A stretch of DNA of 34,537 nucleotides from positions 1 through 34,537 of the forward strand of contig VBLZ01000100.1 in the NCBI GenBank assembly GCA_005878515.1, read 5' to 3'. This DNA comes from Methanobacteriota archaeon. Lineage in GTDB: Archaea; Thermoplasmatota; Thermoplasmata; RBG-16-68-12. The notes under the pieces are model-generated. The model was not told the DNA's origin, searched no databases, and worked only from the letters and a program-made list of their open reading frames with translations. Each line of letters opens with the position of its first letter. The stretch's first letter is position 1. A program made the translations under genes and the position numbers. Shown piece by piece: positions 10,503 to 12,188 of this stretch.

Positions 10503-11288
10503 TCACATCACGCAGCAGCGCGGACTCTCCCAATAGTCCAACCCAAGCCGGACCAACGTCGGGTCGGTCGAGGTGATCGCATACGCGTCACCGTCCGCGG
10601 TCCGGGACATCGTAAGGACCTGCTGGCCATCGACGAGCACGAGGACGCACTCACACACGATCGAGCGGATCTCCGCGGCCTTCTCGAGGTCTTTCGTGAC
10701 GGGGATCTCGGGCACCGCGAGCCGCACGCGAATTCGCCGCCGGGCCGCACGGGCGAGATCGTCTTCGAGCTTCCGGAAAATCCCTTCATCGGCGGCGAGC
10801 ACGACGATCTCCTTTCGCGCCGATGAGATCAGGGCCTTTGCTCGAGCGACGACGTTCGGGAGGCCTTTCACGATGTACGCCACATCGGTGTCGGGAGACT
10901 TTGTCGCCGCACGGAGCGGCTCGAGGAGGGAGCCAAGGCGCGCTGTGGCCGCCCGTCGCTTCTCGTATTCGGCCTCGACGAGACGACTCAGTCGGATCTC
11001 GACCTCTTTCGCCGGCACGACCCGAAACGTCTTTGGCTTGCCGTCCTGGACCTCGACGAGCCCTTTCTCGGCCAGCTCGTCGAGGGCATAGTAGATCTTC
11101 GAATCGGCGACACCGGTCTTCAGAACCAGATCGCCCGCGGTCGCATGGCTCACCCGAACCAGTGCGCAAAACGCCTCGGCAGCGTGTCCGCTGAATCCGA
11201 GGTCCCGCAAGGTGCCGCGGATCCGTTCCGCGGAAGGCCCGAACGATTCTTGGAGGAGCGCGTTCGCCCGCGCCTTGACTTCCGACAT
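10503..11288 (-). CDS. TrmB-family transcriptional regulator with CEC and terminal CC cysteine motifs
   Basis: LRDLGFS...TGVADSKIYYALDELAEKGLVEVQDGKPKTFR wHTH, coiled coil, then VAYIVKG...ISSARKEIVV effector domain; ends ESPRCCVM. Confidence 0.9.
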   Translation of the reverse strand: MSEVKARANALLQESFGPSAERIRGTLRDLGFSGHAAEAFCALVRVSHATAGDLVLKTGVADSKIYYALDELAEKGLVEVQDGKPKTFRVVPAKEVEIRLSRLVEAEYEKRRAATARLGSLLEPLRAATKSPDTDVAYIVKGLPNVVARAKALISSARKEIVVLAADEGIFRKLEDDLARAARRRIRVRLAVPEIPVTKDLEKAAEIRSIVCECVLVLVDGQQVLTMSRTADGDAYAITSTDPTLVRLGLDYWESPRCCVM

Positions 11289-11311
11289 CCGGTAGGCCAA
11301 GGGAGGGAAGG

Positions 11312-11319
11312 TATTTAAT
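11312..11319. promoter_or_regulatory. Shared TATA box for divergent trmB and arsM
   Basis: TATTTAAT / ATTAAATA, ~24 nt from the trmB ATG and ~30 nt from the arsM ATG. Confidence 0.6.
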
Positions 11320-11324
11320 GTTAG

Positions 11325-11344
11325 CTACTACTGATTGGTAGTAG
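11325..11344. promoter_or_regulatory. Palindromic operator between the TATA box and the arsM start
   Basis: CTACTAC-TGATTG-GTAGTAG, perfect 7-bp arms. Confidence 0.7.
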
Positions 11345-11349
11345 AGACC

Positions 11350-12078
11350 ATGGAAGCAACCGCGGAGGAAGTCCGTGCGAAAGTGCGGGAACGGTATTCG
11401 ATCGCAGCGAGCAGGCGGGGTGGTTGCGAGGACGACGGCTGTTGCGCGATCGGCTATTCGCCGGTGGAGCTCGAAGGGATTCCTGCCGAATCCGTCCTCG
11501 GATTGGGCAGTGGAAATCCGGTCCGGCATGCGGAGCTGCGCCCCGGCGAGACCGTCGTCGACCTCGGGAGCGGCGCCGGAATCGACGTGTTCCTCGCGAG
11601 CCGCCTCGTCGGCCCGGCGGGGCACGCGACCGGGATCGACATGACGCCAACCATGGTCACACGCGCCACGACCGCATCGGTGGCTCACGATATCCGGAAC
11701 GCATCGTTTGTCCTCGCGCCGATCGAGAAACTGCCGCTTCCGGATGGGCATGCGGACGTGGTCCTGAGCAATTGCGTCATCAACCTGAGCCCCGACAAAC
11801 CGGCCGTGTTCGCCGAGGCCTTCCGAATCCTGAAGCCGGGCGGACGACTCGTGATCTCGGACGTGGTCCAAGAACGGGACCTGGGCCGGATCGAAGACGA
11901 CTGCGGCTGTGTCGGAAACGCGATGGTCCGTGGCGAGTATTTGGAGACGATCCGGCGTGCTGGATTTGCGGAACTCCGAATTGTGGAAGACCGGCCCTGG
12001 CGGACGGGCCCGAGCGGAATCGAGGCGTCCGCCGTCACCCTCATCGCGCGAAAGCCGGGACGGGAGGTGAAGATGTGA
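11350..12078 (+). CDS. arsM: Arsenite S-adenosylmethionine methyltransferase
   Basis: VRERYS...[70 protein letters not shown]. Confidence 0.88.
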
Positions 12079-12188
12079 TACCCATCGAGATCATGCTGGC
12101 GAAGGCGCTCGCGGAGGAACTCCGCGCAGAAGGCTGCTGCGGGAGCGGGCCGTGTTGCGCGGACTCCCGTTGTGGCTGCTGCGCCTGA
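12075..12188 (+). CDS. Cys-rich micropeptide (37 aa), metallothionein-like
   Basis: [40 protein letters not shown] start overlaps the arsM stop (GTGA); strong SD GGAGGTGA at 12063-12070. Confidence 0.72.

Follow-up and report, generated by a model that had tools for sequence, protein, structure and literature searches.

In archaea, the sensing of arsenic and soft metals is usually assigned to ArsR-type proteins, and the As(III)-binding cysteine sites of this family have arisen at different positions within it. SmtB of Synechococcus is a metal-sensing repressor with a divergent metallothionein gene, smtA, and ArsD carries As(III) via vicinal cysteine pairs. TrmB-type regulators repress promoters from an operator downstream of the TATA box, and TrmBL2 is known as an abundant, chromatin-type DNA binder. 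Microbial methylation of arsenic matters for rice and groundwater. The present study concerns a stretch of 34,537 nucleotides (nt) from an archaeon of the Thermoplasmata (GenBank assembly GCA_005878515.1, contig VBLZ01000100.1; ‘the window’), in which the gene for a cysteine-tailed TrmB-like regulator, here called TrmB-CC, diverges from an arsM-like methyltransferase gene coupled to an open reading frame (ORF) for a cysteine-rich peptide.

A described regulator with similar traits is OxsR from Haloferax volcanii, a TrmB-family protein (PF01978) that depends on a conserved cysteine and whose targets include thiol-related genes (PMC9426492). It is described as a single winged helix-turn-helix (HTH) that forms an intersubunit disulfide at C24 under hypochlorite and that binds a CG-rich motif upstream of the transcription factor B recognition element (BRE) and TATA box (PMC9426492). 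In the literature searched, OxsR is the only thiol-based TrmB-family regulator found in print. A full-text literature search, with supplementary neighbourhood tables outside its range, returned no paper in which a regulator of the TrmB type is connected with arsM, with arsenic or with a cysteine-rich peptide, which agrees with a reading of the window made beforehand from its letters (the sequence-only reading), where no description of the arrangement was known.

Conservation of the unit

Overall, a distinct TrmB subfamily, a cysteine cluster, a palindrome and cargo related to thiophilic elements travel together in archaeal genomes. All lines of evidence are comparative or predicted, i.e. they come from sequence, a fold model and gene neighbourhood. 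The genome of the window has 1,836,856 bases and 64% GC and is 75% complete; the window's contig is C206 in the genome scans. The close-relative set comprised 41 genomes, the window's own and 40 relatives, from which 20 regulator loci were read in detail. The wide set, 77 loci, came from a pattern scan in which each prokaryotic species was represented by a single genome; all of these loci are from records of metagenome-assembled genomes (MAGs). Forty-two of these are labelled Thermoplasmata, Methanomassiliicoccales or ‘Methanobacteriota’, with a regulator identity of 48-95%. The other 35, at 29-36% identity, comprise 21 from Bathyarchaeia, five from Thaumarchaeota/Nitrososphaerota/Nitrosopumilales, seven from Asgard archaea (Heimdall-, Hod- and Prometh-archaeota, and Atabeyarchaeum), one ‘archaeon’, and one with a bacterial label that is probably mis-binned. 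The close-relative loci (L001-20) overlap with the first 42 loci of the wide scan (L021-62), and the two sets are not independent. The arrangement is therefore not peculiar to this genome, a possibility that the sequence-only reading had left for a synteny search, since it is found at 77 loci in several archaeal phyla.

Table 1. Features of the divergent unit in the window (positions on the forward strand)
Feature	Position	Strand	Remarks
trmB-like regulator gene (TrmB-CC)	10503..11288	-	261 aa + stop; conserved ATG; C-terminus ...YWESPRCCVM
P-R-C258-C259-V-M tail, vicinal cysteine pair	10506..10523	-	C258 and C259 invariant in 20/20 orthologues
C212-E-C214 codons, internal half of the cysteine cluster	10647..10655	-	C212 in 20/20, C214 in 18/20 orthologues
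Intergenic stretch between trmB and arsM	11289..11349		exactly 61 nt
TATA-like octamer TATTTAAT	11312..11319		sole AT-rich element between both start codons
Candidate operator, perfect inverted repeat CTACTAC-N6-GTAGTAG	11325..11344		between TATA element and arsM ATG
arsM-like gene, short S-adenosylmethionine (SAM) methyltransferase	11350..12078	+	242 aa; TGA at 12076-12078
GGAGGTG, Shine-Dalgarno-like motif	12063..12069	+	within arsM 3' end, 5 nt ahead of peptide GTG
Cysteine-rich peptide ORF	12075..12188	+	37 codons, 7 Cys; GTG start overlapping arsM TGA

The regulator TrmB-CC

TrmB-CC is laid out as a winged HTH, a long coiled-coil helix and the PLD-like half of the TrmB effector domain. 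The Pfam family PF01978 (TrmB HTH) matches residues 27-93 with 50.6 bits (cut-off 25.6), and PF11495 (Regulator_TrmB) matches residues 138-249 with 49.1 bits (cut-off 22.2), from position 3 to 120 of a profile of 233. Since the protein stops at position 120 of 233, the sugar-binding subdomain is absent, and sugar sensing by TrmB-CC was rejected for this reason. A match to the ArsR-type HTH (PF01022/PF12840) in TrmB-CC was not obtained at E≤0.01. The NCBIfam equivalogs for TrmB, TrmBL1 and TrmBL2 reach only 30-45 bits against cut-offs of 500-650: the sugar-sensing TrmB/TrmBL1 models NF040851 and NF047390 fail with 32.6 bits (cut-off 600) and 44.5 bits (cut-off 650), and the TrmBL2 model NF041141 fails with 40.1 bits (cut-off 530), so that only architecture and fold are held in common.

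An AlphaFold2 model built on an alignment of 40 sequences (mean predicted local distance difference test score 87.5) has the winged HTH, a 38-residue helix, an alpha/beta domain and a low-confidence tail. Its closest folds in the PDB are TrmBL2 (PDB codes: 5bpd, 5box, 5bqt; E ~1e-16), followed by TrmB (PDB code: 3qph; 2e-11) and then by PLD-family domains; the TrmB sugar-domain entry 2f5t and PLD-family proteins are also among the fold matches. By domain and fold, TrmB-CC belongs to the TrmB family, and the model suggests a TrmBL2 architecture without the sugar-binding subdomain. The idea of a repurposed TrmB scaffold, put forward in the sequence-only reading, thus gains weight: the sugar-binding half of TrmB is missing and a cysteine cluster is conserved.

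Full-length orthologues are present in 22 of the 41 genomes at 55-100% identity. A profile search of the whole library (1.84 billion representatives) returned 39 representatives at E≤1e-30, below which the score falls to generic TrmBs lacking the cysteines. The CC tail occurs in nearly all full-length representatives at E≤1e-30 and is missing from the generic TrmBs. On these sequence comparisons, TrmB-CC represents a distinct TrmB subfamily. Public sources label its close homologues as ‘sugar-specific transcriptional regulator TrmB’ or as a generic HTH protein.

The cysteine-ended tail (...PRCCVM) noticed from the letters of the window is present, and it is part of a conserved cluster that consists of C212, usually C214, and C258-C259 (codons of the latter pair at 10512-10517). 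A C-terminal P-[RK]-C-C is kept in all 20 close-relative loci, and the 40-sequence alignment, which spans several phyla, shows conservation of 90% or more for C212, P256 and C258. Over the wide set, the internal cysteine is found in 76 of the 77 loci, and the P-x-C-C tail together with the internal cysteine in 74. C214 is missing in part of the family, which leaves three near-universal cysteines. In one representative (P0043), C212, C214 and the CC pair have all been lost together.

A second TrmB-like paralogue is encoded in the window at 20670-21488 (+). It has 272 aa, 27% identity, one cysteine and no CC tail, and is preceded by TTATCA-N9-TGATAA at 20609-20629. In at least eight relatives, the contig with the TrmB-CC gene also has a comparable paralogue, at a distance of about 7-10 kb.

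The intergenic promoter and its palindrome

The short divergent promoter region described in the sequence-only reading, 61 nt with one TATA-like box and a perfect palindrome, was recovered in every detail (Table 1). With up to two mismatches allowed, the palindrome has a single copy in the window and no copy in 100 dinucleotide-preserving shuffles. It is also a single occurrence in the whole 1,836,856-base genome, against 118 isolated half-sites, and a search with spacers of 0-14 nt and shortened arms found no further copy in the genome. Because only one site was found, no wider regulon is visible in this 75%-complete genome.

In the wide set, the palindrome with up to two mismatches lies within the 150 nt upstream of the regulator gene in 66 of 76 usable loci, and is perfect in 30 of them; 150-nt control windows from the same loci gave no hit among 2,694. 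The count used a fixed spacer, and two apparent misses are artefacts: in L073 a start codon placed too far upstream hid a perfect site at 2896-2915, and L042 has a variant with a 5-nt spacer. In all 20 close-relative loci the AT-rich octamer stands at an identical offset, and after it comes the palindrome, either perfect or with one mismatch, which lies 3' of the TATA-like element and 5-7 nt ahead of the first ATG or GGAGG. Residues D62-S63-K64-I65-Y66 of the recognition helix are at least 90% conserved across phyla in the 40-sequence alignment, and this fits with an operator that is likewise conserved across phyla.

The centre of the TATA element is 27.5 nt from the ATG of trmB and 34.5 nt from that of arsM. 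Transcription in archaea starts about 26 nt from the TATA centre. Therefore the regulator mRNA would be leaderless, the arsM message would have a leader of about 7-8 nt, and the operator would cover the arsM transcription start. One TATA box may in this way serve both directions.

A second perfect palindrome, ACACGGT-ATTTA-ACCGTGT, is located at 10398-10416 around a TATA-like core, between the trmB stop codon and the next gene on the minus strand, and is also a single copy in the genome. The core CACGG-N7-CCGTG of this palindrome is found again at the equivalent place in 20 of 97 related loci, a count that includes loci fetched twice. The gene behind it, at 9967-10353 (-) and directly downstream of the regulator gene, encodes a protein of 128 aa, or 144 aa if an upstream GTG is the start, whose N-terminus is HTH-like and whose C-terminus has four cysteines (C-x(n)-C ... 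C-x-x-C); no Pfam or NCBIfam match was found for it.

The ArsM-family methyltransferase

The product of the arsM-like gene scores 238.1 bits with the NCBIfam arsenite methyltransferase model NF008823 (cut-off 263), and its closest solved proteins are arsenite methyltransferases (PDB codes: 5evj, 5.5e-27; 4fr0 and 4kw7, 6e-22). C142 (in SNCVINL) aligns with the cysteine of SNCVCNL in 4kw7/4fr0, and C187 with the cysteine of E-C-L-G-G; both are invariant in 14 of 14 aligned ArsM sequences, and we take them to match the metalloid-binding cysteines C174 and C224 of CmArsM. The cysteine of the G-C-G-N-P motif, presumably CmArsM C72, is a serine in the window (G-S-G-N-P). The same position is serine in 21 of 23 scored ArsMs labelled Thermoplasmata (the other two also appear to be serine by eye) and cysteine in 20 of 22 from other phyla. 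In CmArsM, the first methylation of As(III) requires C72; hence the Thermoplasmata enzymes, with serine at this position, may prefer methylarsenite, MAs(III), as substrate or borrow a thiol. The ArsM fusion families ArsM_AhpD_UU, ArsM_DUF2284_UU and MTase_UXPK_star score only 144-167 bits on the window protein against cut-offs of 460-575.

All 12 arsM orthologues with at least 53% identity in the 41 genomes adjoin the TrmB-CC gene, and more distant ArsM paralogues lie elsewhere. One of these, an ArsM-like paralogue of 40-43% identity in open frames of about 520-680 aa, occurs in 13 of the 41 genomes (relatives G001-G034, e.g. G007:C370 and G034:C9), either on a different contig from the TrmB-CC gene or more than 100 kb away from it. 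In L060 (1075-2937, -) a 620-aa fusion protein, with two methyltransferase domains and a rhodanese domain at its C-terminus, occupies the arsM position.

The cysteine-rich peptide

The coupling of arsM to a seven-cysteine peptide, as read earlier from the window, stands, with the GTG of the peptide overlapping the TGA of arsM. Seven of the 37 residues are cysteines (19%), arranged as three CC pairs and one single cysteine, and the peptide has no F, W, Y or H. The cysteine content is higher in the peptides of relatives, with 7-10 cysteines inside a span of 25 residues. The third codon positions have a GC fraction of 0.79 in the peptide frame, of 0.59 and 0.65 in the other two frames, and of 0.71-0.84 in neighbouring genes. 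The G-G-E encoded in the peptide frame just upstream of the start recurs in seven of seven related loci (L021, L022, L025, L026, L027, L057 and L059, with L024 excluded), and in L017 and L018, where the peptide stands alone, it likewise has GGAGGTG ahead of it. Peptides with at least five cysteines in 25 residues are found at the arsM stop in eight loci labelled Thermoplasmata; in a ninth (L054) the peptide is about 390 nt further on.

A chance ORF was considered, since long spurious frames on top of real genes are common in this 64% GC genome, and was rejected because the start position, the Shine-Dalgarno motif, the cysteine pairs and the third-position GC are all conserved. A Pfam search of six peptides returned no family at E≤10, metallothionein families included, and an NCBIfam search of the window peptide returned none either. 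The peptide therefore fits the metallothionein trait, i.e. small, cysteine-rich and free of aromatics, yet falls in no described metallothionein family. A complex prediction for ArsM and the peptide scored 0.01, which counts neither for nor against binding.

Cargo of the unit across phyla

In the close relatives, arsM follows the palindrome in 10 of the 20 loci, and in eight of those 10 a homologous small ORF with 2-9 cysteines overlaps the arsM stop. The remaining 10 loci have no arsM; here a peptide of 30-40 residues with up to 13 cysteines starts 5-7 nt past the palindrome. In the wide set, an arsM homologue is part of the divergent unit in 49 of the 77 loci, in four phyla, and, once the genes are clustered, it occupies the first place in 34 loci, the second in 11 and the third in three. 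Among the 42 Thermoplasmata-labelled loci, arsM comes first in 27, a cysteine-rich peptide in 14, and neither in one (within the 838 nt available). The sequence-only reading had proposed a self-contained unit that senses, methylates and sequesters. The part of this proposal that holds is a conserved module of regulator, palindrome and arsM-peptide pair; the part that does not hold is arsM as a constant partner, as the peptide stands alone in those 14 loci.

The cargo differs in the more distant lineages. In Bathyarchaeia and Atabeyarchaeum the first gene usually encodes a 98-aa AhpD/CMD-like CxxC protein (14 loci) and is followed by arsM. The best NCBIfam match of the 98-aa protein is the AhpD module of the fusion family ArsM_AhpD_UU, and a bathyarchaeial partner arsM (L069) passes NF008823 with 366.6 bits (cut-off 263). 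A nitroreductase gene comes first in four loci, and short peptides with two CC pairs occur in two bathyarchaeial loci. In three thaumarchaeal MAGs (L067:2610-2900, -; L068; L075) a 96-aa Gly/Ala/Ser-rich protein with several CC pairs and no match to a Pfam family is encoded directly after the operator. Behind it lie an M28 peptidase-like gene and a cysteine desulfurase-like gene. In another thaumarchaeal MAG (L090:890-2650, -) the divergent partners of the TrmB-CC gene are an ArsR-type gene and a gene for MerA, which passes the equivalog cut-off (518.6 bits vs 454.45) and ends in a CC pair. Neither ArsD nor ArsA is encoded in the flanks of the 77 loci, and no gene for a metal-efflux ATPase or a metal chaperone was found in the clustered flanks.

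Since arsM is missing in part of the loci and other thiol or redox proteins take its place, the conserved core is regulator, operator and thiol-rich cargo, with arsM as the commonest cargo.

Occurrence in soil and RNA libraries

Soil metagenome runs from 13 studies contain the window stretch, as do two metatranscriptome libraries of one study. Contigs from the two RNA libraries cover 10551-11216, within the regulator gene, and 11352-12296, with the peptide ORF as well as arsM. A contig of 850 nt spans, with no differences, the arsM stop and the peptide start and extends 108 nt beyond the peptide stop. These contigs are compatible with expression and with co-transcription of arsM and peptide. 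No RNA contig (X19/X20) covers 11217-11351 or 12354-13200, and 11352 is the first position of one X19 contig; nothing is concluded from the gaps.

Further downstream of the unit, at 13204-15360 (+), lies a gene for a predicted surface protein of 718 aa, in whose translation two almost identical repeats, each about 90 aa long, are seen with poly-proline linkers between them; a membrane anchor lies at the C-terminus.

Proposed mechanism and alternative explanations

The unit can be read as a stress module run from a single promoter, with the following proposed mechanism. Dimeric TrmB-CC would bind the 20-bp palindrome CTACTAC-N6-GTAGTAG. Because this site is directly 3' of the TATA element and over the expected arsM start, the bound protein would block the recruitment of RNA polymerase at arsM and thus act as a repressor; archaeal repressors hinder polymerase recruitment from just such a site. 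From the side of its own gene, the site abuts the TATA/BRE and is just upstream, so that autoregulation is plausible and TrmB-CC may regulate its own gene as well. The thiols of C212, usually C214, and C258-C259 in the flexible C-terminal tail would bind As(III) or MAs(III), Sb(III) or Hg(II), and the binding would free TrmB-CC from DNA, as for ArsR-type repressors. Derepression would give an arsM-peptide message with a short leader; ArsM would then methylate the metalloid, and the CC-pair peptide would buffer or carry it as thiolate complexes. Repression, the effector and the role of the peptide are what we infer here, and the effector specificity may well differ between lineages. That TrmB-CC is a dedicated local repressor of this unit is very probable. 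The full reading, in which a repressor of TrmBL2 architecture uses its thiols to sense As(III) or another thiophilic species like it, is on balance the probable one. It is possible, if on the doubtful side, that TrmB-CC is the founder of a new structural class of metalloid sensors that extends from Thermoplasmata to Asgard archaea, and that the vicinal-dithiol peptides are As(III) carriers for ArsM, which would replace the lost G-C-G-N-P thiol and low-molecular-weight thiols, in effect ‘ArsR plus ArsD plus glutathione’ made from unrelated parts.

Several observations weigh against a metalloid-responsive repressor. In 28 of the 77 loci there is no arsM in the sequence available. The ArsM of the window is under the NF008823 cut-off (238 vs 263) and is without the G-C-G-N-P cysteine found in other phyla. 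No arsenite efflux gene was found in the clustered flanks of any of the 77 loci, and no Acr3 in the window's 75%-complete genome, which gave only a weak ArsB-like match at C4:2733-3938, on a contig without any ArsR-type match. The AhpD-like, nitroreductase and flavin mononucleotide (FMN) reductase partners equally suit a redox or electrophile response. Furthermore, the compared loci are kin and not independent samples, with overlap between L001-20 and L021-62, and the RNA-library contigs prove neither transcription, strand nor transcript ends. An arsR gene is absent from the window, as noted earlier from its letters, and of the genome's 13 matches to PF01022 (ArsR-type HTH) not one is on the window's contig C206; but the term ‘ArsR-independent’ used in the same place went too far, since all 13 lie elsewhere in the genome.

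The redox partners would be expected if TrmB-CC were a thiol-disulfide switch for oxidants or electrophiles, with ArsM-like enzymes as one member of a thiol-stress regulon. For this there is a precedent in OxsR, a TrmB-family winged HTH that uses a conserved cysteine as a redox switch (PMC9426492). The AhpD/CMD-like CxxC proteins of 14 loci, the nitroreductase of four, an FMN reductase, a pyridine-nucleotide disulfide oxidoreductase, and the 28 loci in which no arsM was seen would all be accommodated. However, arsM as the dominant partner (49 of 77 loci, first in 34) would be left unexplained, the disulfide oxidoreductase passes the cut-off of the MerA equivalog, and the AhpD-like protein best matches a module of an ArsM fusion family. 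In general chemistry, vicinal Cys-Cys pairs are poor disulfide formers and good binders of As(III) and Hg(II), which favours metal(loid) binding over a disulfide. OxsR also differs in being a single domain with its cysteine at another position, and overall a redox switch seems rather unlikely. If, instead, TrmB-CC sensed soft cations (Hg, Cd, Cu(I) or Zn) and the peptide were a true metallothionein, the linkage to arsM would be secondary or lineage-specific and the peptide-only loci would resemble SmtB-smtA. The peptide stands alone after the operator in 14 of the 42 Thermoplasmata-labelled loci, the 96-aa CC-rich protein does so in three thaumarchaeal ones, MerA and an ArsR-type gene are in the divergent unit of L090, and the peptide has the cysteine content (19%, and higher in relatives) and, in the window, the lack of aromatics that such a protein would have. 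Set against this are the arsM genes of 49 loci in four phyla, the six peptides with no Pfam match at E≤10 even to metallothionein families, and the clustered flanks, which have no metal-efflux ATPase or chaperone gene, so that a sensor of cations is judged distinctly improbable.

Two further explanations touch the cysteines and the scaffold themselves. Most members have four conserved cysteines (CxC and CC), enough to hold an iron-sulfur cluster and make TrmB-CC a sensor of O2, nitric oxide or iron, and many of the host lineages carry the labels of groups that are largely anaerobic; but only three cysteines are near-universal, with C214 absent in part of the family, and cargo such as arsM, CC peptides and MerA has no obvious tie to the sensing of iron-sulfur, O2 or nitric oxide. 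Little credence can be given to a cluster of this kind. The last explanation takes the public label ‘sugar-specific transcriptional regulator TrmB’ at its word: an ordinary sugar-sensing TrmB would then stand next to a palindrome that is bound by an ArsR-type protein from elsewhere, for which the genome's 13 ArsR-type matches offer candidates, and the small ORF would be a chance frame of a kind frequent in GC-rich DNA. This is hard to reconcile with an effector-domain match that ends at 120 of 233, with equivalog scores of 32-45 bits against 500-650, with an operator that travels with the TrmB-CC gene across four phyla, and with a peptide ORF that keeps its start, Shine-Dalgarno motif, length and cysteine pairs despite sequence divergence and has a coding-type third-position GC. 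It appears highly improbable.

If the thiol-based metalloid repressor is true, a sensor on a TrmB scaffold would be one more structural family among the few that metalloregulators belong to, and the widespread automatic label ‘sugar-specific transcriptional regulator TrmB’ would be corrected. Regulator and 20-bp operator together could serve as a marker for regulated arsM genes in soil and sediment archaea, and the compact sensor-operator pair is a possible part for biosensors. The tiny CC-pair peptides, which belong to no family in the libraries searched, are candidates for metallothionein-like or metallochaperone molecules of archaea. With a single recognition helix and a single operator kept from Thermoplasmata to Asgard archaea, the unit is a rare case of a cis/trans pair that can be followed across phyla.

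Comparison with known systems

In its proposed logic the unit resembles ArsR/SmtB, namely a dimeric winged-helix repressor on a promoter palindrome that would be freed by As(III) on about three cysteine thiols. The scaffold, however, is different: TrmB-CC has about 260 aa with the TrmB HTH and Regulator_TrmB domains, a coiled coil and a PLD-like domain, and no PF01022/HTH_5, and its cysteine cluster sits in the PLD-like domain and the C-terminal tail. With a different scaffold and no ArsR HTH, TrmB-CC is therefore not a member of the ArsR family and would be at most ArsR-like in its working. TrmBL2 and TrmB of Thermococcales share with it the Pfam domains, a TrmBL2-like length (~260 aa) and the top structural matches, and its operator is found 3' of the TATA box, which is also the arrangement at promoters under TrmB-type repression. 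It differs from them in being far under their equivalog cut-offs, in having no sugar-binding subdomain and in the conserved cysteine cluster; unlike the chromatin-type TrmBL2, it has a single specific site in the genome. OxsR is likewise a PF01978 TrmB-family protein with a conserved cysteine, whereas TrmB-CC is made of three domains, carries its cysteine cluster at the C-terminus, has arsM as cargo and is paired with an AT-containing palindrome 3' of the TATA box.

The cargo has its own counterparts. The peptide-only loci resemble SmtB-smtA in that genes for a sensor and for a tiny cysteine-rich protein diverge from a short operator-promoter; the regulator is of another family, however, the CC-pair peptides are in no metallothionein family, and half of the related loci put arsM between operator and peptide. 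The fusion families ArsM_AhpD_UU, ArsM_DUF2284_UU and MTase_UXPK_star likewise combine ArsM with a small redox or chalcogen-pair module, but here the genes are separate, cysteine stands in place of selenocysteine, and all scores are far under the cut-offs of 460-575. The use of vicinal cysteine pairs would recall ArsD, from which the unit differs in having no ArsD or ArsA in its flanks. By analogy with these systems, the module would work like ArsR-arsM, and in its peptide-only form like SmtB-smtA, on a new scaffold, as a thiol-based, metal(loid)-responsive repressor with its cargo.

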